Origin: a phage
Sequence record: PZ445405.1
Strand: one strand, 5' to 3'
Length of the DNA stretch: 50,126 bases
Numbering within the stretch: position 1 is the first letter of the stretch; the number at the start of each line of letters is the position of its first letter. Positions 1 to 45,440 of the stretch are shown here, piece after piece. The notes under the pieces were generated by a model. It saw only the letters and a list, made by a program, of their open reading frames with translations. It made no database searches and was not told the DNA's origin. Position numbers and translations under genes: made by a program.

Positions 1-63
1 GCACTTTATGCAAAGAATAAAGCTCACGGATGAGCTAACATAATCAAAACAAGAGTGGGTGTT
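1..63 (+). promoter_or_regulatory. Regulatory cassette upstream of HNH-1; T-rich-centre box truncated by window edge (gcactttatgcaaag), hairpin 21-36, CATAAT 39-44
   Basis: Matches the internal cassettes at 10574 and 36960 except that the first 3 nt (ata) lie outside the window. Confidence 0.4.
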
Positions 64-540
64 ATGAATTGGGCTGAATTTTTTAGATACGAAGATGGAA
101 ATCTGGTAAGGGTTACCACAACCTCAAGTAGAGCTATTGAGGGCATGGTTGCTGGAAGCTTGTCTGGCAATGGCTATCTGCACATAAGAATAGGCGACAG
201 GCGTGTAAAAAACCATCTCATAATTTGGGAGATGCACAATGGAAGGATACCAGAAGGGATGGAGATAGATCATATCAATCACATAAAGACAGATAACAGG
301 ATCGAGAATTTAAGGCTCGTAAGTCACAAACAGAACCTATCAAACGCATCTCTTAGGTCAGACTCGTCAACTGGTGCGAGTGGCGTTAGTTGGAACAGAA
401 ACAGGCAGAAGTGGCACGCTTATATAAAGTCTAACTACAAGAGGATGCACATAGGATTTTTTGATTCCTTTGATGATGCCGTAGCAGCAAGAAAGAAAAA
501 GGAGATTGAATTGGGATTTCATGAGAATCACGGAAAATAG
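64..540 (+). CDS. HNH homing endonuclease (HNH + AP2-like DNA-binding domain), copy 1
   Basis: Motif EIDHINHIKTDNRIENLRLVSHKQN; paralogous to ORFs at 30756-31235 and 37032-37517 (all start MNW..); ATG at 64 preferred over GTG at 55. Confidence 0.8.
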   Translation: MNWAEFFRYEDGNLVRVTTTSSRAIEGMVAGSLSGNGYLHIRIGDRRVKNHLIIWEMHNGRIPEGMEIDHINHIKTDNRIENLRLVSHKQNLSNASLRSDSSTGASGVSWNRNRQKWHAYIKSNYKRMHIGFFDSFDDAVAARKKKEIELGFHENHGK

Positions 541-4067: not shown

Positions 4068-5357
4068 ATGAACTTTTTAGATTTAGTCAGAAAGCAATAC
4101 GATAGCGGAAAGGTTAGTCTTTCAGGAGTAAAGGTTAGCACTGACTTCACAACCACTTCATTAATTCAAGCAGCAACGACAATAGCTAACCCAGTCACTC
4201 ACACCCGCAAGGATGAAACTAAATTTAAGTTTACCACTTACGGGCTGGCTGATGTTTCCGGCGGCTCCTATACTGGGCAGTCGCCAAATGGCGTGCAAAT
4301 GAAAATTGAGTTCATGACTGACGCGCTTGTCTTTGAGTTCAAGACTATCGGCTCTATCGGTACGTACTCTGTATTTGTTGATGGAGAGCTAACCAATATT
4401 GATGCAATCTCAACTCCTAACGGTCAAGCCGTTACTTACGTAAGAACCGAAGCCTCAGATGGCGTAATTAAGAGAATGAGACACGTCGAGATTTATGGGG
4501 TGAACACTTCATTCGGCGGGTTGTTTACCGACGCTGCGGATACGGTAACCAGCGAAATCACCATCGATCCAAAACCTTTTATCTACCAGATGGGTGACAG
4601 TTACACGTACGGCACTGGCGCAGGCTACGTAACTCAGGCATACGGCTCATCCCCAGCGATTAACGATTTCTACGTGTTCAGAAATGCGCTAGGCATGGAC
4701 GGCATCGCGGAAGGTATCGGTGGTAGCGGATGGAACAGCACGGGCGGGCAAGTTCCGGCCTCAAGGTTGCAAAACAGACTGCTTAAGATGAATCGCAAGC
4801 CAGATGTTGTTAGTTTCGCTCTCGCATACAATGACGCTGCGGCTATTAACACTGGAACTAACGCAAGCAAACTAGTTACCTCGATGGGTGACGCGCTAAA
4901 GGTTGTCCGAGATGCAATGCCTGGCGTTCCTGTTATTCATGTTAGCTGTGCCACGCCAAAAGGAATCACCACGCAAATTCAGAGAGTCATAGACCTTACT
5001 CATGATTTTTGCGCAAGAAATGACATTCCCGTGATTGGGATTAGTAACTACGTGACTGCGGCGAACAGCATTTCATACACTGGAACGGATAACGTCCACC
5101 CAAACCCTCTGGGGCACGAATTCCGCGGTTTAGCTATGGCAAGGGAGTCATTAATGGCGGCGCTGGAAGGTCGTAGCCTGGTGCCAGAAATCAAACCCAG
5201 CGGTTTCACTGTAACTTACATTGAGCGACTCCGCTTCGCGGTTGATGTTAAGCGTGAGGTTGTTCAAGCTAAAACCGCAGATGAGGCATACTGGATGGTT
5301 AAATCTCGGGAGTACAGCAATCCAGACTTGAGAATCGAAATCATTTCTGTAGCATAA
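4068..5357 (+). CDS. SGNH/GDSL-family hydrolase domain protein (putative esterase) with N-terminal beta-rich domain
   Basis: Catalytic blocks readable in the C-terminal half: GDSYTYG (Ser), GGSGWNS (Gly), AYNDAA (Asn), DNVHPN (Asp-His). Confidence 0.6.
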
Positions 5358-5363
5358 CAACAA

Positions 5364-5386
5364 GCCTCCTTCGGGAGGTTTTTTAT
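5364..5386 (+). terminator. Rho-independent terminator
   Basis: CCTCC-ttcg-GGAGG followed by TTTTTTATT. Confidence 0.65.
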
Positions 5387-5439
5387 TAACCTTAACTCTG
5401 TTAGACTTATTAGGTCTATTAACCAATCAGGAGATTAAG

Positions 5440-6873
5440 ATGGCTAGCGAATTAAGAGCAGTAACCGCTGGGACTGCCCACGCCCTAAAGCAAAAAATCA
5501 TGGAATACATTGCTGATGGTTGGCAGCCTTATGGAAGAATCCTTAACGCTGGAGCGACTAGCGTTGGTATCATCATGGCGAAAGGTACTACAGCAAGCAT
5601 TAATGATGTTGATGTTATTACCGCAGATTCAAGGGCTTCTTTAGTTTCTAAGATTAACTCATCCATCGAAAATGGGTTTGAGATGTTCGGAGAGCAGGAA
5701 GTGAACGCAAGTAGATTTATCGCCTTCATGACTAAGGGTTCTCAAGGTTCATCTGGTGGCGGTGGAGAACCTGGACCAATTGGGCCTAAGGGTGAGAAGG
5801 GTGACAAGGGCGACAAGGGAGATGTTGGTGAGCGCGGACCCGCTGGCCTAGCTGGTGCGGCTGGCGCTACTGGTCCATCTGGCCCTCAAGGTTTAACTGG
5901 CCCCGCCGGCGCTAAAGGTGATACTGGTGAGCAGGGACCAATGGGTCCAACTGGCGCTACTGGACCTAAAGGTGATACTGGCGAAACTGGTCCCGCCGGA
6001 CCGCAGGGCCCAAGAGGATTGCAAGGTGAGCAGGGGGTTCCGGGCGAGGTTGGTCCTGCTGGATTGACATTCCAGGGCGCATGGGATTCTGCTGCGACAT
6101 ATGTGAAGGATGACACTGTAGTTTATGATGGGTCTACTTGGTTTGCTCCAGATGCTGTAGCTGCTGGATTAGTCCCTGGAGTTGCTACTGAGTGGATTCT
6201 TTTAGCTGCGCAAGGCGCAAGGGGCGAGGATGGTCCGCAGGGTCCGGTTGGCCCTCAGGGTTTACAGGGTGCCACTGGCCCAGCGGGTCCTACTGGTGCT
6301 ACTGGTGCTACAGGCCCGCAAGGCCCTAGAGGTATACAAGGTCAAACTGGCCCGGCAGGCCCAGCAGGTCCTCAGGGTGAGGCTGGTCCTCAGGGTATTC
6401 AGGGTCCGCAGGGTGTCGCTGGGCCTCAGGGATTAACTGGTCCTCAGGGTCCAAAAGGTGATAAAGGCGATGCTCCTTACACATTATTTAACTCGCAGAA
6501 CGTTACATCAACATACATTGAAATCCCTATTCCGCAAGTAACCAACACTGTACTTAGGGTTAGGCTTTCAGGTGCCAACTTTGAATATAGCGTTTTAAGC
6601 AAAGGCGGCGCCAATAGATATGTTGACTTTTACACATTCATCCCGTCATTAACTAGCTCAACGGGTAACATCTATACCGGAGGAACTACCTTGACACCAA
6701 CTGGTAGCCTCTTTTTGGGTAACTCCCCCGTGGCTCTTGGATTGAGGGAGTTGACAATAACACTCAAGGAATGGGGCGACAGAACGCTAACTACAATAAA
6801 GGCGATACATCACGGCAGATCAGGTGACACAACAAGACCTTTGCAGATAACTATGTTTAGTAATAAGTATTAA
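5440..6873 (+). CDS. Collagen-like (Gly-X-Y repeat) protein, probable virion fibre
   Basis: Two long uninterrupted G-X-Y tracts ([20 protein letters not shown].. and [22 protein letters not shown]..) flanked by globular N- and C-terminal domains. Confidence 0.8.
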
Positions 6874-29842: not shown

Positions 29843-30759
29843 AGTAGTTCGCTTGCCTTATAGATTCTCTTTCTTATTCCTGACTTGAAAAAATTATCAT
29901 CATTTGGCATTACCACATCAATATTGCGATCGTCAGCAACGGCGAGTAAATCAAGATCGTGGCGAGTACAAGCGATGCGTAACTTGTATTTTCTAAGCGC
30001 GTAAGCAACCATTTCCATGTTGTAGATGGAGTAGCAAACAAGCACGCAGCGGTTGCCAGTAGCAATGTGAACACGATAGCCGTCAATGAGATTATCGACC
30101 AGATAAGCGTAATCATCATCCTTAAAGGAACCAATAACAGAAACAGATTGGCGAGTATAATCTTTTGCAGCATAACTAACACCTCCATATTCATTGATAA
30201 ACATTACATTACACATTTCTTCTGATATGCCGTCACTATAAGCCATAAAGCACGGCACTGCGTGTATTAGTTCGCCTGATTTTGTTCTGCCAACATCAAA
30301 GCCAAACTCGCTATAGATTCCCTCGTATGTACTGAGCGGAGTTGATTCTACTCTTTCAGTCCTTTCCATTATCTCTAAGCATCTTTCGTGGTCAATCTGA
30401 GCGCCCATTTTGTAGATCTGGGTTCTTGATGCTTGCTTGTTTGCTTTAACTATAACCTCAATTGGTGTTAAGTTCAGCCAGTCACCAAGCAAATTTACTG
30501 AATCGGCGAAGGACGATCCAGTGCACTTCATGACCCATCCTATACCGGAGTCACTCCCGCATTTCGAACAAACTGCCGCGCCATTTCCTTTTTCACTGCC
30601 TATTTCGTCGGTAAATCTGAATCTGTCAGTGCCAAAGCAGTATGGGCATGGTCCGTGCTTCTTACTTAGGTGTCTATCATTCCAACCAAGTTCCTTTGCA
30701 TAAAATGATTTCCACAATCCGGCCATCTTAGGTATAACTTCATTCTTATCGTAATTCAT
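29836..30759 (-). CDS. DNA primase-like protein with zinc-ribbon
   Basis: Cys motifs CPYCFG..CSKCGSD in the N-terminal region; ATGA coupling with the upstream HNH gene; replication gene context. Confidence 0.5.
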   Translation of the reverse strand: MNYDKNEVIPKMAGLWKSFYAKELGWNDRHLSKKHGPCPYCFGTDRFRFTDEIGSEKGNGAAVCSKCGSDSGIGWVMKCTGSSFADSVNLLGDWLNLTPIEVIVKANKQASRTQIYKMGAQIDHERCLEIMERTERVESTPLSTYEGIYSEFGFDVGRTKSGELIHAVPCFMAYSDGISEEMCNVMFINEYGGVSYAAKDYTRQSVSVIGSFKDDDYAYLVDNLIDGYRVHIATGNRCVLVCYSIYNMEMVAYALRKYKLRIACTRHDLDLLAVADDRNIDVVMPNDDNFFKSGIRKRIYKASELLN

Positions 30760-31235
30760 TTGCTTAACCCGTGATTTTCGTGAAAGTTGTATTTTCTCTC
30801 TGCTTCAATTCTTACTTTATACGCCTGCTCTGGAGTATCGAAGTTCCCAAGGTGTAACTGCTTACCGTCAACCTTGATGTGAGCCTTAAATTTTCCGTGA
30901 TTTAGCTTTGCCACTCCACAATAACCAGTTGTTGATAAAACGCTAAGCCTGCAATTTCTTGAGTTACCTTGATTTGTTGTTACTCTTAGGTTTTCTATTC
31001 TGTTATCTAATTTGTTATGGTTTATATGATCAATGTAGTCGCCATTTTGAAGTTCTCCATTAAACATCTCCCACACAACTCTATGTACGTAAGTCCTAAA
31101 GCCATTAACAGACACTTTGTAATAGCCAGATGTAGATAGTGAGTTGCACTCATCGCCAACCTTAACACGTCTTGCAGTGCTAATCTTCCAATGCAATTTG
31201 CCATCTACATAGTAAAAATAATCATGCCAGTTCAT
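30756..31235 (-). CDS. HNH homing endonuclease (HNH + AP2-like), copy 2
   Basis: Motifs DHINHNKLDNRIENLRVTT and paralogy to the other two copies. Confidence 0.8.
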   Translation of the reverse strand: MNWHDYFYYVDGKLHWKISTARRVKVGDECNSLSTSGYYKVSVNGFRTYVHRVVWEMFNGELQNGDYIDHINHNKLDNRIENLRVTTNQGNSRNCRLSVLSTTGYCGVAKLNHGKFKAHIKVDGKQLHLGNFDTPEQAYKVRIEAERKYNFHENHGLSK

Positions 31236-31308
31236 TTTCTTCTCTCCAATAAAAAAGGATGTACCGATTATGGCACATCCAATCCTTTAATCTTTAGCTT
31301 TTCGTGCT
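31236..31308 (-). promoter_or_regulatory. Cassette variant upstream of HNH-2 (box AGCACGAAAAGCTAAAG, terminator hairpin, CATAAT, TTTTTTATTGGAGA RBS junction)
   Basis: Box overlaps the C-terminus and stop of the upstream gene; hairpin GGATGT..ACATCC. Confidence 0.45.
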
Positions 31309-36959: not shown

Positions 36960-37031
36960 ATAGCACCTTTTGTTAAAACAGTAGCCGCGAAAGCGGCTAT
37001 TATTGTTTTATACAAACGATAGGAGATTGAA
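36960..37031 (+). promoter_or_regulatory. T-rich-centre cassette upstream of HNH-3 (ATAGCACCTTTTGTTAAAAC, hairpin, TATTAT 36998-37003)
   Basis: 22-bp spacing; hairpin AGCCGCG-aaa-GCGGCT in the spacer; SD AGGAG. Confidence 0.5.
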
Positions 37032-37517
37032 ATGAATTGGCATGATATTTTTGAATACAACGATGGCATTCTTTATCATAAAGTTAAGTTATGTATAAGA
37101 AATGATGTTAACGTTGGTGATATTGCTGGGGGGGGCGTTAGGCAAAACGGCTATCACTACGTGAATTACAAAAATAAGTTTTACAAAAGGTCAAGGGTTG
37201 TATGGGAGATGTTTAATGGAGATATACCTGAGGGATTTGTCATTGATCACGTCAACCATGACGCGACAGATGACAGGATAGAAAACCTAGAGTGCAAGGA
37301 GCGCAGGGATAACATGGTTAATGTAAAGCTAAGGATTGATAGCTCCTCTGGTGTAACTGGTGTAGCAAGAAAGAGCGGTAATAAGTGGAGGGCATACATA
37401 ACAATCATGGGTAAGCAGAAGTCCAAGAGCTTTAACACGTTTGAGGATGCTTGCGCACAGAGGATTGAATGGTCGGTAACTCATGATTTTCACCCAAATC
37501 ACGGTGGAAAATACTAA
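37032..37517 (+). CDS. HNH homing endonuclease (HNH + AP2-like), copy 3
   Basis: Motif VIDHVNHDATDDRIENLE and paralogy to copies 1 and 2. Confidence 0.8.
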   Translation: MNWHDIFEYNDGILYHKVKLCIRNDVNVGDIAGGGVRQNGYHYVNYKNKFYKRSRVVWEMFNGDIPEGFVIDHVNHDATDDRIENLECKERRDNMVNVKLRIDSSSGVTGVARKSGNKWRAYITIMGKQKSKSFNTFEDACAQRIEWSVTHDFHPNHGGKY

Positions 37518-38985: not shown

Positions 38986-39001
38986 TGGAGGCTATATTTT
39001 T
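38970..39001. terminator. Bidirectional terminator between the lysis cassette (+) and the replication operon (-)
   Basis: AGCCTCC-taat-GGAGGCT flanked by A7 and ATATTTTT. Confidence 0.6.
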
Positions 39002-39335
39002 AGCTAAATAACTCGTCGTCAGTCATTCTTCCTATGTTCATCATCTCTTTTATGTATTTGCTTTCATACCCGTTAAGTGCCTCGAAGTTAAACCCAAATG
39101 GCCTCTTCAAGCTACCCTTGCTAACGAACTCTCCGCACTTACCATCAATGTACCCCATGCTAAGCATCTTCGCGCAAAACTCCTTTGAAGCAGCGCTGCA
39201 AAACTCTCTATGCGACAATCCCGCCGCCTTGCTGAATCTCTGAGAGTCCTTATGTTGGTAGATGAATCGCGCCAAATGCTGGCGCGTGAAAAAGCTATAG
39301 GATTCGCAGAACTTAAATATATCGAGCAGGAACAT
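39000..39335 (-). CDS. Hypothetical protein (111 aa)
   Basis: ORF downstream of the primase-helicase gene on the minus strand. Confidence 0.4.
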   Translation of the reverse strand: MFLLDIFKFCESYSFFTRQHLARFIYQHKDSQRFSKAAGLSHREFCSAASKEFCAKMLSMGYIDGKCGEFVSKGSLKRPFGFNFEALNGYESKYIKEMMNIGRMTDDELFS

Positions 39336-39338
39336 TCA

Positions 39339-40922
39339 TCACCCCAGCAGTCGTGGATTAATGTAAACTTTATCACCAATCAGGCATGTATAGTTTTTCT
39401 CATCTAACATCGGCAGCAAGTGGTCTTTAATCTTTGTCATCACTCCAGCCTGAGACTCGAACGGCTTAACCTTGCGCGCAGCCTCATACAATGAACGAAT
39501 GCCAACTACGCCTTTCCCGTTCTTTCCTTGCTTGATAAGGATATCAATCAGCTTATTCATCTCGGCATTGTCGCCAGCGTGACCAGCGGCGTTAGCAGAT
39601 GACAGATAAGTCTTGCTAAGCTCCTGGAACATGATTACAGCCTCTTGCATTGTGTCCAGTCCAATCTCTCTGGACTTCTGCGGGCTTCCGCCATTTGGGT
39701 TAAACCAGTTACGGACAGTGTGAATAACTGCGGCAATCCTGATAGCCTGCTTATCGAACTTGCCCAGCGCGCCGCGCAACATAGTATGTGAATACTTACC
39801 GCCATCAGCAAGATGGGGCTCCATTTCCTGACGTGCACGGTTGAGATATTTCATCGCTGAGTTACTCACTGTCAGCTTTACTTCCTGCTCGCTCATGATT
39901 TCGTGAACCAAGCGGAAGTAGTCAGCCTTCAGTCCGCTGTCAATTGGCTCGTATGTTGACTCTCCATTCTCATCAACGAATACACGTTCGCCCAGGAAGG
40001 ACTTTTCACGCACAAGCAGAAAACGCTCCGACACACCGATACCACGCGCACCAGCATTCATAATGGCGTTGATTGTTTCGTCCTGCGCAATTACCGAGAT
40101 GCAACCCATAGCAACGAAACTCATGTTGTTCTCTGCGTTCGCACGCGCGATAGATACGTTACCAGCATCCCATGCTTTAAGCACGAGTTCACTGTTTGTT
40201 TTCTTTGAGCCATCTCCATAGGTCATGCCCAGAAGTGAGTTCACGCTCGTCGCCTCATCCGAGATTACTGCGAAGTTTCCCTGGCGGTTGTTTATTCGCG
40301 CAAGTCCCTCAGGCGTGGTGTCGGATACGGGGAAAACGATATCGCATAGCTTCTCGAGTTTCTCCTCCAACTCCTCTTTCTCTTCAAAAAGTGAAGCCAT
40401 CTCTGAAGGAGATTTTTCCTGCTTCATCTCTTTGGATAATGCAGATAGTTTGGCCATAATCTTTTTGCGCTCGCGTTTTCGCAATTCATTTAGTCGCTCA
40501 GTCTCGGCAATCATCGGGGCAATAGAAAGTGAGTTAATCGCTGATTTACCGGTCGATGGAGGTTGACTTGTAACTACGTAAAGAGATGTTGGCTGCTGCG
40601 TTCCGTGATACTCAACAGTAAAGCGGCCCAGCATAGCAGCGGAAATGCAACCCAAAAAGTGCATATAAGCTGAAGACTCCGGGAACTGAACAGAACGAGC
40701 AATGTTGGCTGACAGTCTACCAACAACGTCAACATCATTTCCGAGCGAGATTACAGGATACTTGTCATTGGCCGCATCAATCTCGACCGGTGCTTTCCAG
40801 AATGACTGAGACTGGCGATAGCCATTAGCATTGATAGCCACGCGCAGGGGTGGGAGGTTTTCTGCGGCAGCTATTGCCATAACTTGTTCAACAGATAGTT
40901 TATCTTCGTTGAAATCAAACAT
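39339..40922 (-). CDS. Replicative P-loop NTPase (primase-helicase / SF3 helicase-like)
   Basis: Walker A PSTGKS and Walker B-like AVISDEAT; N- and C-terminal regions shared with the paralog at 43766-44293. Confidence 0.6.
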   Translation of the reverse strand: MFDFNEDKLSVEQVMAIAAAENLPPLRVAINANGYRQSQSFWKAPVEIDAANDKYPVISLGNDVDVVGRLSANIARSVQFPESSAYMHFLGCISAAMLGRFTVEYHGTQQPTSLYVVTSQPPSTGKSAINSLSIAPMIAETERLNELRKRERKKIMAKLSALSKEMKQEKSPSEMASLFEEKEELEEKLEKLCDIVFPVSDTTPEGLARINNRQGNFAVISDEATSVNSLLGMTYGDGSKKTNSELVLKAWDAGNVSIARANAENNMSFVAMGCISVIAQDETINAIMNAGARGIGVSERFLLVREKSFLGERVFVDENGESTYEPIDSGLKADYFRLVHEIMSEQEVKLTVSNSAMKYLNRARQEMEPHLADGGKYSHTMLRGALGKFDKQAIRIAAVIHTVRNWFNPNGGSPQKSREIGLDTMQEAVIMFQELSKTYLSSANAAGHAGDNAEMNKLIDILIKQGKNGKGVVGIRSLYEAARKVKPFESQAGVMTKIKDHLLPMLDEKNYTCLIGDKVYINPRLLG

Positions 40923-40996: not shown

Positions 40997-41347
40997 TTAC
41001 AGGTATTTCGCTTCAAATAGGTAAGTCTGACACAGGGTGTAAAAACCAACATCTTCACTGCGGTAAAGCTGCCAAGCATTGCCATCCTCATCGTAAATGT
41101 AACCGGCAGATTGACCAAGACCCGCGTGAAGATTTACCTGGTAACGTTTATTTTCTTTAAAGTCTTTTTTAACTCCTGACTTGTGGTTAACCTTTGTGCA
41201 GTAAAGCGTTTTGGTCTTAATGTATTTGCCACGCTCTTCGAGGTTAATCCATTTGCCATCTTTCTTGATTTGCTCTGCACCATCCTTAACGCGAGCTTTG
41301 TACAATACGTTTTCGTTGCTAATCCAGTTTTTAGTTGTTGTTGTCAT
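40997..41347 (-). CDS. Hypothetical protein (116 aa)
   Basis: Cassette-driven ORF on the minus strand. Confidence 0.4.
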   Translation of the reverse strand: MTTTTKNWISNENVLYKARVKDGAEQIKKDGKWINLEERGKYIKTKTLYCTKVNHKSGVKKDFKENKRYQVNLHAGLGQSAGYIYDEDGNAWQLYRSEDVGFYTLCQTYLFEAKYL

Positions 41348-42441: not shown

Positions 42442-42620
42442 AAATCATTACCCTTTAAGCTGTCATATCTGATGGCGTCTCTGTTGCACTTTCTGGTCTT
42501 GCCATGAAGCACCTGCTTAAACTCAATTGTACCTTGCTGCCTTAGCTTTTTATATCTTCCTTGCGACTTACTTATTTCTTCAATCTTTTGTTGCGCTTTC
42601 AATTCCGGTCTCTGCTTCAT
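42438..42620 (-). CDS. Hypothetical basic protein (60 aa)
   Basis: First ORF behind the minus-strand cassette at 42621-42692. Confidence 0.4.
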   Translation of the reverse strand: MKQRPELKAQQKIEEISKSQGRYKKLRQQGTIEFKQVLHGKTRKCNRDAIRYDSLKGNDL

Positions 42621-42692
42621 ATCTATACCCTCGTTGTTGATGAGCTAACTATACCCTCAACAGCCGCGCTTGTCTTTAGCAAAAAGTGCTAT
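42621..42692 (-). promoter_or_regulatory. T-rich-centre cassette on the minus strand (box rc of 42675-42692, TATAGT, leader CATCAACAACGAGGG)
   Basis: Reverse complement ATAGCACTTTTTGCTAAA; spacing 22-23 bp. Confidence 0.5.
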
Positions 42693-42699
42693 TCGTTAG

Positions 42700-42800
42700 A
42701 TTTATGGATTGTTGCGGATATTGCAATGATTCCCATGATTATTGCACATATAGCAATATTGCTTCAGATGCAATGATGTTTTTGATTGTTGCGAAATGAG
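42700..42800. repeat. Cluster of short direct repeats (GATTGTTGCG x2, TGCAATGAT x2, ATTGC motifs) in ORF-free DNA
   Basis: Repeated 9-10-mers read directly; no credible ORF. Confidence 0.5.
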
Positions 42801-42865
42801 CAATAAAGTAGTGAGTGAGTGAATGAAAGATGGATGGACTACCATACAAGTTGATTTTGATTCTG

Positions 42866-43200
42866 CTAATCCATTTTCACGCTTACACGTAACGCCCGTA
42901 GCGCGATGTAAGCCAACGCCTATCGTTACGCGAGTTACGCGCAGCTACGCCTAGACTTACACTATAAGTGCCTAATATATATATATATCTTCTTTCTATT
43001 ATTATTATTATTATTATTATTATTGTATGTAAGTCATGTAACGGGGTTTCCGGCGATATCTATATGTTTTTTCCTATCAGTTATAGCCTTGGCTATAATT
43101 TAAGGTATGGAGTGGGTGTTTTGGGGCCATTTGCCTCGTTACACGCACGACACGCCACTTACATTAAGCTATAGCTGGGCTAGCATACCATTTCGCGTAA
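42866..43200. repeat. Iteron plus microsatellite control region B (paralog of region A)
   Basis: ACGTAAC 42887, CGATGTA 42904, G(T/C)TACGC x3 at 42925/42934/42944, (AT)7 42975-42988, (TAT)9 42997-43023, palindrome AGCTATAGCT 43167-43176. Confidence 0.7.
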
Positions 43201-43229
43201 CGACCCCCAAAAGTTACCAAAAATTACAC

Positions 43230-43258
43230 TTGACTACATGTGTAAGTCGGGATATGAT
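43230..43258 (+). promoter_or_regulatory. Strong sigma70-type promoter (TTGACT, 17 bp, TATGAT) with conserved leader
   Basis: Near-consensus hexamers at canonical spacing; leader AAACGAGAGGAG precedes ATG 43290. Confidence 0.6.
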
Positions 43259-43289
43259 GGACTCAACTTAAACGAGAGGAGTGATAGAG

Positions 43290-43769
43290 ATGAACGAGAA
43301 AGTAACATTGGGCCAAGTGATTCGTGAGATGGTGAAAGCAGCGCTTAAGTCTGAGGACAAGCAGATCAGCGTGACACTCAACAAGATTGAGAGCCTTATC
43401 GGCGCCGAGGAGGGTGGTCTAAATAAGCTTAAGAGCTCATACATCTACAATACAACGGCTCGCATGCCTGAGTTGAGAGATGCCGGACTGAAGGCGACTC
43501 ACCACTATGATGAAGAAAGGGGTGTTAATGAATATACTGGGAGTGAGATACTTGGAGACAAAAAGCTTGTTATTAAACTAATTCCAGGCTCGGCAAACAT
43601 TGGAATCAGGAAGAAGACCAACGACGCGATCAAGGATGAGGCAATCACTGAGTTCAAAGCCAGGATTTCTAAGGTGATGCCAGACCTTTCTGCGTATGAA
43701 GGTGAGGCCCTTGCAGCCGCTATGAAGGCCATTAAGGATTACCGTTTGATTATTGAGGAGATTAAGTGA
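43290..43769 (+). CDS. Hypothetical protein (159 aa), likely immediate-early
   Basis: First gene behind the sigma70 promoter; SD GAGGAG. Confidence 0.45.
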   Translation: MNEKVTLGQVIREMVKAALKSEDKQISVTLNKIESLIGAEEGGLNKLKSSYIYNTTARMPELRDAGLKATHHYDEERGVNEYTGSEILGDKKLVIKLIPGSANIGIRKKTNDAIKDEAITEFKARISKVMPDLSAYEGEALAAAMKAIKDYRLIIEEIK

Positions 43770-44293
43770 TGTTTGACTTTAACGAGGATAAACTGACAGA
43801 AGAGCAGGTAATTGAGATAGCCAAGCAAGATGGGCTGCCGCCGCTGCGAATTGCAATCAATGCTAACGGGTATCGACAGTCAACGGCGTTTTGGGGCTCG
43901 ATTGATACCTCAGGGGTGTATAGTGGTGATGAGCTTGGTGTAATGATTAAAATCATCAGGAAAATGGGAGTTAACGGCAAAGGAGTTGTTGGCGTCAGGT
44001 CTCTATATGAAGGTGCTCGCAAGCTGAAACCATTTGCGGGGCGCGATGGGATGATGCTACTGATTAAGGATAAGCTAATTCCAGAGCTCGACAAGATGAA
44101 TATCACGTGCCTCATTGGCGATAAGATTTACGTCAACCCTGCCTTGACGGATTTAAGCTGGCATCCTAACTTCAAAACTTACGAAGGTGAGCACGCTAGT
44201 AGACTACCATACCACTTGCGGTACACTGAGGAAGAGGTGGAGAAGGCTATTGAGTTCTATCGGAAAGCTAAATCACTAATTATCGCCAAATAG
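43766..44293 (+). CDS. Truncated paralog of the primase-helicase (N- and C-terminal domains only, no ATPase core)
   Basis: N-terminus MFDFNEDKL..LPPLRIAINANGYRQS and segment NGKGVVGVRSLYEGARKLKPF..CLIGDKIYVNP match the two ends of the 527-aa protein. Confidence 0.55.
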   Translation: MMFDFNEDKLTEEQVIEIAKQDGLPPLRIAINANGYRQSTAFWGSIDTSGVYSGDELGVMIKIIRKMGVNGKGVVGVRSLYEGARKLKPFAGRDGMMLLIKDKLIPELDKMNITCLIGDKIYVNPALTDLSWHPNFKTYEGEHASRLPYHLRYTEEEVEKAIEFYRKAKSLIIAK

Positions 44294-44363
44294 CACGAAT
44301 TGCTAAACAATGGATCGGGTAGTCAGCTATGATTACTTCATCGACAACAAAGAGGAAATGAAG
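44290..44363 (+). promoter_or_regulatory. Canonical promoter cassette (box 44290-44307, TATGAT 44328-44333, leader CATCGACAACAAAGAGG)
   Basis: Box contains the TAG stop of the upstream gene; 22-bp spacing. Confidence 0.55.
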
Positions 44364-44570
44364 ATGAAAAACGTTATTATTGAAGATATTCACTTTGACC
44401 AAGCTGAGGTAGGAATCGCAAAAAGCGTTCGCGGAAACGTTGTATATCTGAACTTCGATCCAGATAACTACGGGGACGGCCAGACACTGATGCAGTACAG
44501 TCCTGAGCAAGCACGCAAACTGGCGGCGGCGTTAATCATGGCAGCGGACGAGGCGGAGAAGCAGCGATAG
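44364..44570 (+). CDS. Hypothetical protein (68 aa)
   Basis: ATG 44364 at good distance from SD AAGAGG; start ambiguous with 44358. Confidence 0.4.
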   Translation: MKNVIIEDIHFDQAEVGIAKSVRGNVVYLNFDPDNYGDGQTLMQYSPEQARKLAAALIMAADEAEKQR

Positions 44571-44640
44571 CACGAATTGTTAAAAAGGGATTCATCCTGA
44601 CTGGTATAATCCCCACATCAACAACGAGACACTACTTATC
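44567..44640 (+). promoter_or_regulatory. Promoter cassette (box ATAGCACGAATTGTTAAA, 22 bp, extended -10 TGGTATAAT 44602-44610)
   Basis: Leader CATCAACAACGAGAC but no substantial ORF until 44826. Confidence 0.5.
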
Positions 44641-44825
44641 AGGTATGTGACTATGGCGATAAAGTCCATGCCGGACTAGGTTCGCACGGCGTCGATAATA
44701 AGTGACAATATACGAACATAAATTCAGCAGCAGGGGTATTGATATGCTCCTGCACTATTTAGACGAAAAATACGCAAATCTCATGCTTAAGACGCATGGT
44801 GGCAAAATAACGAGGATTAACATAA

Positions 44826-45440
44826 ATGGCTAAAATCATCATTCTTAATGGACCAGCTGGAGTGGGCAAAGACACTATCGGAAACGCGTTACACTATGAT
44901 TACCGATGTATACAAACAAGCTTTAAGCGTCCAATGTTTGAAATTGCCGAGTCAATCCTGGGGGCCGGGGCGTTCAGTAAGTTCATCACGGCTTATGATG
45001 ACCGAGATCAGAAAGAGATGCCTCAGAGCTTCCTTGGTGGCAAGACGTGCCGCGAGTTCATGATCTGGATTAGCGAGTCGGTAGTCAAGCCGCTATTTGG
45101 CAATCAGCAGTTCGGTAAGCTAATGAGCGAACATATCAAGCTGTGTGACGAAGGATTAACGTTCGTTTGCACTGATGGCGGTTTCGCTGATGAAGTTATC
45201 CAGCTTGTTGAAGATGGTCACGATGTTACGCTGGTGCGACTTTTTATGGAAGGCAAGACCTTCGCAGGCGATAGCCGTAATTACATCCGAATCAAGGAAT
45301 CGCACTTCCCTGATTATAAAAAGTATCAGGAGCATAGCGTTCGCCTGGTTAATGGTGACATTGGTGGCGGCGTATTGGCGGTGGCTGAGGCTTGCGGACT
45401 AACCTCAGATTACGAATGGGTAGACGATATTCCCTGGTAA
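44826..45440 (+). CDS. P-loop nucleotide kinase (dNMP kinase-like, putative)
   Basis: Walker A GPAGVGKDT at the N-terminus; overall architecture reminiscent of phage deoxynucleotide kinases. Confidence 0.5.
   Translation: MAKIIILNGPAGVGKDTIGNALHYDYRCIQTSFKRPMFEIAESILGAGAFSKFITAYDDRDQKEMPQSFLGGKTCREFMIWISESVVKPLFGNQQFGKLMSEHIKLCDEGLTFVCTDGGFADEVIQLVEDGHDVTLVRLFMEGKTFAGDSRNYIRIKESHFPDYKKYQEHSVRLVNGDIGGGVLAVAEACGLTSDYEWVDDIPW

Follow-up and report, generated by a model that had tools for sequence, protein, structure and literature searches.

The window analyzed here, the entire 50,126-nucleotide (nt) stretch of sequence record PZ445405.1, derives from a T1-family (Drexlerviridae) coliphage of the Rtp/DTL type. 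Its left half is 85–88% identical to RobRod40, Rtp, and JeanPiccard, and positions 43000–45000 are 86–90% identical to BEK2, DTL, and CEB_EC3a; DTL is classified as Drexlerviridae; Braunvirinae; Loudonvirus. Two sets of genes diverge from a control region in this part of the window (Table 1). The leftward cluster includes the gene for a 527-amino-acid (aa) helicase, and the early rightward operon opens with a gene for a DUF7174 protein. The second gene of the rightward operon, which holds this position and overlaps the DUF7174 stop codon in the same way in every locus examined, encodes a 174-aa protein. We found that this short protein consists of the two ends of the helicase without the motor that lies between them, and sequence comparisons indicate that it has stayed in step with the helicase of its own genome.

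Comparison of the short protein with the 527-aa protein by BLASTP revealed two separate significant segments. Residues 2–43 of the short protein (in the numbering of a 175-aa open reading frame [ORF]) aligned to residues 1–42 of the helicase with 74% identity (E = 3e-20), and residues 39–127 aligned to helicase residues 436–525 with 54% identity (E = 6e-29) in a C-terminal segment of 90 residues. Neither segment contains low-complexity sequence. No part of the short protein aligned to helicase residues 43–435, which means that the entire ATPase core is missing, and no Pfam family was matched at E ≤ 0.1, so DUF3987 (PF13148) was not detected. These alignments agree with the initial annotation of this DNA, which had noticed a 175-aa ORF that shares about 40 N-terminal and about 85 C-terminal residues with the 527-aa protein, lacks the Walker A/B ATPase core, and could be checked by pairwise alignment.

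Several details of the initial annotation require correction. The ORF had been drawn from a GTG at position 43766. The true start is almost certainly the ATG at 43769, since this codon lies 8 nt downstream of a GAGGAG ribosome-binding site, overlaps the upstream stop codon (TGATG), and opens a peptide, MFDFNEDKL, identical to the start of the helicase. The resulting arrangement suggests that translation of the short gene is coupled to that of the upstream gene. Nucleotide identity between the two genes, put earlier at about 75% for the N-terminus, was measured at 68% over the N-terminal 126 nt (83, 86, and 36% at the three codon positions) and at 60% over the part encoding the C-terminal domain (62, 76, and 41%). 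Finally, the 527-aa protein had been called a primase-helicase. No primase domain of the AEP, Toprim/DnaG, or PriCT type was found in it, and it is better described as a DUF3987, MCM-like helicase; the putative primase of JeanPiccard is a separate gene elsewhere.

The short protein was modeled with a mean predicted local distance difference test (pLDDT) score of 74, and values reached 85–91 across residues 11–125. The model consists of three short helices (residues 11–41), a 12-residue linker, a winged helix (residues 55–127), a stretch of low confidence, and a terminal helix (residues 154–172). The junctions of the internal deletion fall on domain boundaries of the helicase model. The N module is acidic, whereas the winged helix is basic in both proteins, with net charges of +6 in the short protein and +4 in the helicase. 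Three helices and a β-hairpin wing, together with structural likeness to solved winged helices, identify the fold of residues 55–127, which resembles the DNA-binding winged helices of Orc1/Cdc6. This domain is of the type found at the C-terminus of DUF3987 proteins, but the short protein neither matches the DUF3987 profile nor contains Walker motifs. The amphipathic helix in the tail is retained in most members of the short family and is missing from the helicase. An origin of the tail in the gene downstream of the helicase was considered and rejected: tblastn alignments that ran past the end of the helicase gene, through its stop codon, in DTL, Rtp, and JeanPiccard extended only weakly and without significance.

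Profile searches place the short gene in phrog_7327, a family that has no functional annotation. The match is full-length (E = 7e-79, 264.6 bits; residues 2–172 on positions 1–176 of 179), and by these sequence measures the gene lies outside the DUF3987 helicase family in the Pfam sense. NCBIfam searches with the short protein, the DUF7174 protein, the helicase, and neighboring proteins gave no matches. Loader families in Pfam and NCBIfam had no sequence match to the short protein, a sequence search of solved structures returned nothing significant for either the short protein or the helicase, and a search of BFVD recovered family members and helicase fragments only.

In the 527-aa protein, Pfam locates DUF3987 at residues 81–430 (E = 2.8e-41), and DUF3987 proteins have been classed as MCM-related superfamily 6 helicases with a C-terminal winged helix (Kazlauskas et al., PMC4889955). 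A PriCT-DUF3987 protein has been shown to act as a 5'-3' helicase and to bind its primase (PMC11724360). The phage helicase is missing the N-terminal OB/zinc domain of MCM. When helicase lineages are compared, the N module (identities of 0.37–0.68) and the winged helix (0.36–0.87) are the most variable parts, and the core is better conserved (0.57–0.88), which fits the behavior expected of interaction modules that determine specificity. It is these two modules that the short protein shares with DUF3987 helicases (phrog_2373); it lacks their AAA+ core and adds a tail helix of its own.

We observed a close correspondence between short proteins and helicases when diverged lineages were compared. 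Five divergent family members (P0243, P0244, P0246, P0249, and P0253), all of which come from metagenomic contigs, share the architecture, the private tail helix, and the DUF7174 junction of the window gene and are therefore its orthologues. No cultured phage in the phage collection carries the P0244, P0246, P0249, or P0253 type. When over 120 helicases were compared, P0246 was most similar to the helicase encoded on its own contig, L028 (S28 to H28), which is 82% identical to the window helicase. P0253 matched P0184 best by a wide margin, and a P0253-type short gene lies on contig L077 beside a P0184-type helicase that is 87% identical to P0184 and 68–69% identical to the others. The best match of P0244 was P0131/P0133. 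At 32 aligned positions that separate the window and L028 helicases, the short protein of the window has the residue of its own helicase at 21 and that of the other at 4; the corresponding numbers for the L028 short protein are 17 and 5. N-module identities were 0.74, 0.60, 0.88, and 0.76 for own pairs, compared with 0.48–0.57 off the diagonal and 0.46–0.55 for one short protein versus another. From this strongly diagonal matrix, it appears that each short protein resembles its cognate helicase more closely than it resembles its orthologues. The own-versus-other signal is absent among close relatives, whose helicases are 91–97% identical, and emerges only with diverged lineages.

Greater likeness of a short protein to its own helicase than to the rest of the short family is also the classical signature of gene conversion. 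The two genes form inverted partial repeats about 2.8–3 kb apart in a recombination-proficient phage, and occasional conversion between the inverted copies could maintain their likeness while the short protein does something unrelated, acting for example as a small winged-helix transcription regulator. Concerted evolution of this kind would leave its mark on synonymous sites, where we looked for it using 112 aligned codons and the fraction of identical codons among identical residues. This fraction was 0.38–0.44 for own pairs, 0.30–0.53 for cross pairs, and 0.49–0.65 for helicase versus helicase; thus, the short gene displays no excess synonymous similarity to its own helicase over other helicases. 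P0253 and P0184 are identical at 41 of 46 N-terminal residues (89%), yet only 13 of 39 degenerate codons are the same, which is near random, and Ser and Arg are encoded from different codon families. Moreover, among 118 short proteins, the identity of the N module to any helicase compared did not exceed 83%, and conversion alone leaves the very low effective dN/dS (ratio of nonsynonymous to synonymous substitution rates) of the N module unexplained. These synonymous-site data led us to reject recent conversion. Synonymous saturation prevents a firm ordering of events, and we regard concerted evolution without a functional link as unlikely. The codon comparisons instead indicate that selection acts on the peptide to maintain the match, and that the short N module is under strong selection to remain like that of the cognate helicase, whether or not an ancient conversion took place.

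Full-length copies of the short gene were found by tblastn in 111 phage records, and all of those listed also have the helicase. Carriers belong to Braunvirinae, Rogunavirinae, and Nouzillyvirus, and the product is annotated in each as a hypothetical protein. A large protein database contains 333 clusters at 90% identity; among 1.84 billion representatives at 50% identity, there were 37 matches, including fragments and a few helicases. The family thus appears, on database evidence, to be confined to this phage group. In ten genomes compared by the method of Nei and Gojobori, dN/dS was 0.1–0.46 for the shared parts of the short gene and 0.01–0.05 for the helicase. The synonymous component (dS) was comparable in the two genes wherever it was unsaturated, and dN/dS of the short gene remained below 1 in every comparison. 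In a neighbor-joining tree of the shared segments, short proteins of close relatives formed one clade with 96% bootstrap support and long branches, and the short protein evolves about ten times faster than the helicase at the protein level. Retention of the peptide while third codon positions (36–41% identity) approach saturation indicates an old gene under selection. Together with the dN/dS values, the well-supported clade, and the presence of the gene in about 110 genomes, this upholds the earlier view of an old, maintained paralogue; judged from sequence, the short gene is functional and fast-evolving and is neither the product of a recent deletion nor a pseudogene.

Some isolates carry disrupted copies. 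Codon 141 of the DTL gene (L002) is changed from GAG to TAG, and codon 140 in the Veterinaerplatzvirus group (L004 and L026, the 44,219-bp group) is changed from GGT to TGA; the short gene of IME542 (L015) is frameshifted. The two nonsense codons arose independently at adjacent positions, both in the disordered part that separates the winged helix from the tail helix, and the tail coding sequence downstream of them remains conserved in frame. Possible explanations are that the tail has been lost, that the codons are recoded or read through, or that the isolates adapted to the laboratory. Such copies, and the absence of the gene from most of Drexlerviridae, are what would be expected of a decaying, functionless remnant of a helicase duplication. 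We consider that reading to have next to no probability, given that over 100 genomes and over 300 protein clusters have an uninterrupted frame, dN/dS lies at 0.1–0.46, codon positions 1 and 2 are conserved while the third is saturated, and the junction predicted to couple translation is preserved.

Our preferred explanation, which we put forward tentatively and rate somewhat short of probable, is that the short protein is an accessory or regulatory factor that partners the helicase of its own lineage and would dock where the ends of the helicase dock. Several observations weigh against it. The short gene is missing from most Drexlerviridae, including lineages that keep DUF7174, and the nonsense and frameshift changes in some isolates indicate that it is dispensable, at least in the laboratory. 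Only three pairs lie on the same contig (the window, L028, and L077, with the N-terminus of the L077 helicase off the contig), and the pairing of P0244 with P0131 is a best hit alone. Close relatives have helicases that are 91–97% identical, but their short proteins are only 41–88% identical. The winged helix of e4/1c is just 26% identical to that of the helicase, so matching of this module is not universal. Finally, synonymous sites are near saturation everywhere, and ancient conversion or re-derivation followed by drift is not strictly separable from co-evolution.

The genomic setting of the short gene bears on a different proposal. The initial annotation had placed the gene directly beside an iteron region and under a strong early promoter, and had suggested that its product binds an origin. 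A consensus-like σ70 promoter (TTGACT-17-TATGAT) does precede the two-gene unit, but the DUF7174 gene lies between the short gene and the repeats. The left part of the control region (42670–42850) is far better conserved among relatives than the neighboring small genes, whereas the right part falls into discrete types that travel with the type of DUF7174. The region is a candidate origin or operator. We considered an obligatory coupling of the short gene to DUF7174 and rejected it, as DUF7174 occurs without the short gene in L018 and L071–L074 and types of either gene combine freely: three different types of short protein accompany a single intergenic and DUF7174 type in the window, L006, and L009. 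By the same comparisons, the short gene appears to be an optional passenger behind DUF7174. In L018, an unrelated 67-aa ORF that follows DUF7174 (5275–5478, minus strand) starts with MFDLDE, recalling the MFDFNE with which the short protein and the helicase begin, and may mark a recombination junction within the first codons.

An origin-binding regulator would use the basic winged helix to bind the control-region repeats and either compete with the helicase or prepare the site, in the manner of truncated initiators of other replicons. The charge and isoelectric point (pI) of the domain, the basic character of its helicase counterpart, and the fold similarity to Orc1/Cdc6 are compatible with such a role, as are a short gene located about 500 nt from the control region and the origin-like features of positions 42620–43280, which comprise ~26-nt repeats, an AT-rich microsatellite, and TTACRCG-type repeats. 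However, the short types reassort against the DUF7174 and right-hand intergenic types, and the winged helix is the less conserved module, with 26–74% identity to the helicase. The putative recognition helix (residues 95–109) is amphipathic and partly acidic, the origin itself is a candidate only, and DNA binding leaves unexplained why the tightest match to the helicase lies in the acidic N module. The origin-binding idea is accordingly weak, and we judge it improbable.

Table 1 Features of the short-paralogue locus and of the parent-type helicase in the window.
Feature	Position	Strand	Remarks
Divergent early control region	42620..43280		Between the helicase operon and the DUF7174/short-paralogue operon
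Three ~26-nt repeats (TTGATTGTTGCG..GCAAT)	42702-42804		Highly conserved among relatives
TTACRCG-type repeats	42883-43200		Roughly 10-nt spacing
(TA)n(TTA)n tract	42975-43024		Conserved microsatellite
σ70-like promoter, TTGACT-17-TATGAT	43230..43258	+	10/12 matches; kept in DTL, L009, L006
DUF7174 gene	43290..43769	+	First gene of early rightward operon; Pfam PF23796, E 7e-46; synteny
GAGGAG ribosome-binding site and TGATG stop/start overlap	43755..43771	+	Same junction in all related loci
Short helicase-end paralogue gene	43769..44293	+	174 aa and TAG stop; ORF list, start position, phrog_7327 match, 333 homologues
N module, aa 1-42	43769..43894	+	Three short helices, acidic; 74% identical to helicase aa 1-42
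12-aa linker	43895..43930	+	Stands in for helicase residues 43-449; only in short protein
Winged-helix domain, aa 55-127	43931..44149	+	Net charge +6, pI 9.8; homologous to helicase aa 450-527
Private C-terminal tail, aa 128-174	44150..44290	+	Low-confidence segment, then amphipathic helix aa 154-172 (44228-44284)
Palindromic motif TAGCACGAATTGCTAAA, first copy in this operon	44291..44307	+	Overlaps short-gene stop; marks end of two-gene unit
TAGCACGAATTGCTAAA copies in the window	538, 15666, 22241(-), 22987(-), 24259(-), 25929, 29773, 31293(-), 34270, 35048, 36961, 41411(-), 42675(-), 44291, 44568, 45442, 45864, 46431		(-), minus strand
Helicase, 527 aa, DUF3987 / MCM-like AAA+ with C-terminal winged helix	39339..40922	-	Pfam, phrog_2373, model
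Helicase N module	40797-40922	-	Homologous to short N module
Helicase Walker A	40542-40562	-	PPSTGKS, residues 121-127
Helicase Walker B	40251-40271	-	AVISDEA, residues 218-224
Helicase winged helix	39342-39575	-	Helicase aa 450-527

Two conserved small genes flank the helicase in all lineages examined: phrog_2794 (111 aa; 39000–39335, minus strand), which from ORF coordinates appears to begin 1 nt past the helicase stop codon, and phrog_2684 (116 aa; 40997–41347, minus strand). Their products are candidate partners of the helicase. The layout differs in L077 (1–5286; SRR17221335_47172), where the order is helicase (plus strand), lysis genes (minus strand), and control region. There the convergent helicase/lysis block is flipped relative to the DUF7174/short-gene operon, such that the helicase and the short paralogue form direct repeats rather than inverted ones.

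The two-gene unit ends in a 17-nt palindromic motif, TAGCACGAATTGCTAAA (TAGCA-N5-TGCTA), that is present in 18 copies in the window compared with 0.43 expected. Its orientation is always that of the local genes, and it usually stands directly after a stop codon. The motif lies 21–22 nt upstream of a -10-like hexamer, which is followed by AAACGAGAGG and a start codon. This arrangement gives it the appearance of a promoter, or of a binding element for a regulator, that is specific to the phage and centered near -42. TAGCACGAATTGCTAAA also follows the short gene in relatives that have different short-gene types, and it may double as a mosaic boundary. Elsewhere in the window, the TAGCAC motif adjoins each of three paralogous ORFs of about 165 aa (at 538, 31293, and 36961). 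These ORFs (34–537, plus strand; 30759–31286, minus strand; 37023–37514, plus strand) are mutually 39–42% identical, match by position putative homing endonucleases annotated in JeanPiccard, and may partly explain why the window measures 50.1 kb and its relatives 44–47 kb.

The short gene resides in a hypervariable early accessory region with many small genes around it, evolves rapidly at the protein level, exists with several tail variants, and is patchily distributed and frequently lost. These properties would suit an anti-defense decoy or host-takeover factor, in which the end modules of the helicase soak up a host immune sensor or an inhibitor directed at the helicase or sequester a host replication factor; such a protein would likewise track the cognate helicase. 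Against this possibility, Pfam and NCBIfam searches gave no match to an anti-defense family, and no defense system is known to sense the ends of DUF3987 helicases. The retron-triggering helicases of one published study, the superfamily 2 proteins UvsW and D10, belong to a different family, and reports on Zorya, Druantia, and ARMADA defense against Drexlerviridae are unrelated to this one. Moreover, a sensor would normally be set off, not blocked, by a fragment containing the epitope that it recognizes, and dN/dS below 1 in every comparison does not favor a decoy. We therefore hold a decoy or takeover function to be a doubtful alternative.

Returning to the accessory-partner explanation, we infer a physical interaction and a regulatory effect from homology, domain boundaries, purifying selection, synteny, and co-variation. 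The short protein is a motor-less derivative of the phage's own MCM-like helicase, composed of the two peripheral, lineage-variable modules joined by a linker and followed by a tail helix. The divergent layout suggests that it is expressed early together with the helicase. Selection appears to hold the N module, and to a lesser extent the winged helix, close to the version found in the co-resident helicase, and on this basis we propose that the ends of the helicase and the short protein share one or more lineage-specific docking sites. Such a site could lie on the ring of the helicase, where contacts would be homotypic or run from N module to winged helix, or on a loader, a primase, or another partner common to both proteins. 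Docking would then influence how the helicase assembles, is loaded, or works early in infection, and the short protein would function as an accessory factor that is non-essential for replication. Tracking of the own-genome helicase lineage by the short modules indirectly strengthens the suggestion, already made in the initial annotation, of an adaptor or dominant-negative subunit.

Winged helices participate in loading and regulation of cellular MCM, as exemplified by the C-terminal winged helices of MCM, Cdt1, and ORC/Cdc6. The parallel with the short protein is structural and lies in the similarity of fold; at the sequence level, the short protein is unrelated to Cdt1, ORC, and Cdc6. One could speculate, with distinctly less confidence than we attach to a partner role in general, that the short protein acts as a dedicated gatekeeper or as a loader subunit matched to the helicase lineage, is built from the two specificity modules of the helicase, docks by the same surfaces on the ring or on its loading partner, and sets when and where the helicase assembles. 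By analogy, it might then be a self-derived functional counterpart of winged-helix loading and regulation of cellular MCM, kept in step by co-evolution and not by gene conversion; this too we think conceivable rather than likely.

Truncated forms modulate full-length replication proteins in several viruses, including gene X versus gene II of f1, A* versus A of phiX174, gp4B versus gp4A of T7, and the shortened E2 repressors of papillomaviruses. As in those systems, the shorter protein shares modules with the longer one, lacks part of the catalytic or recognition apparatus, and would be made in the same infection. In the known pairs, one gene yields both forms, through an internal start or splicing, and the shared part does not differ in sequence. 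In contrast, the short paralogue is a separate gene on the opposite strand, located about 2.8 kb away, that keeps both ends of its parent at 54–74% protein identity; with a nucleotide identity of 60–68%, it is not a same-gene internal-start product of the f1 gpX, phiX174 A*, or T7 gp4B type. We found no paper on this paralogue, its relation to the helicase ends, or its co-variation with the helicase. Shortened replication proteins are already known; what is new is a separate, diverged gene that keeps both ends of the parent and is held in step with it by selection.

T1-family phages are common laboratory and industrial contaminants as well as candidates for phage therapy, and their replication is poorly understood. 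The present findings bear on a gap in this field, namely how the MCM-like (DUF3987) helicases of phages are loaded and regulated. The short paralogue provides a clear example of a protein built by removal of the core while both ends of the parent are kept, and it gives a functional lead for phrog_7327, a family that over 100 genomes list as hypothetical. Phages that can be obtained, among them JeanPiccard (Bas02) and DTL, offer a simple experimental handle. A motor-less copy matched to its helicase points to the surfaces through which these helicases may engage in lineage-specific interactions.

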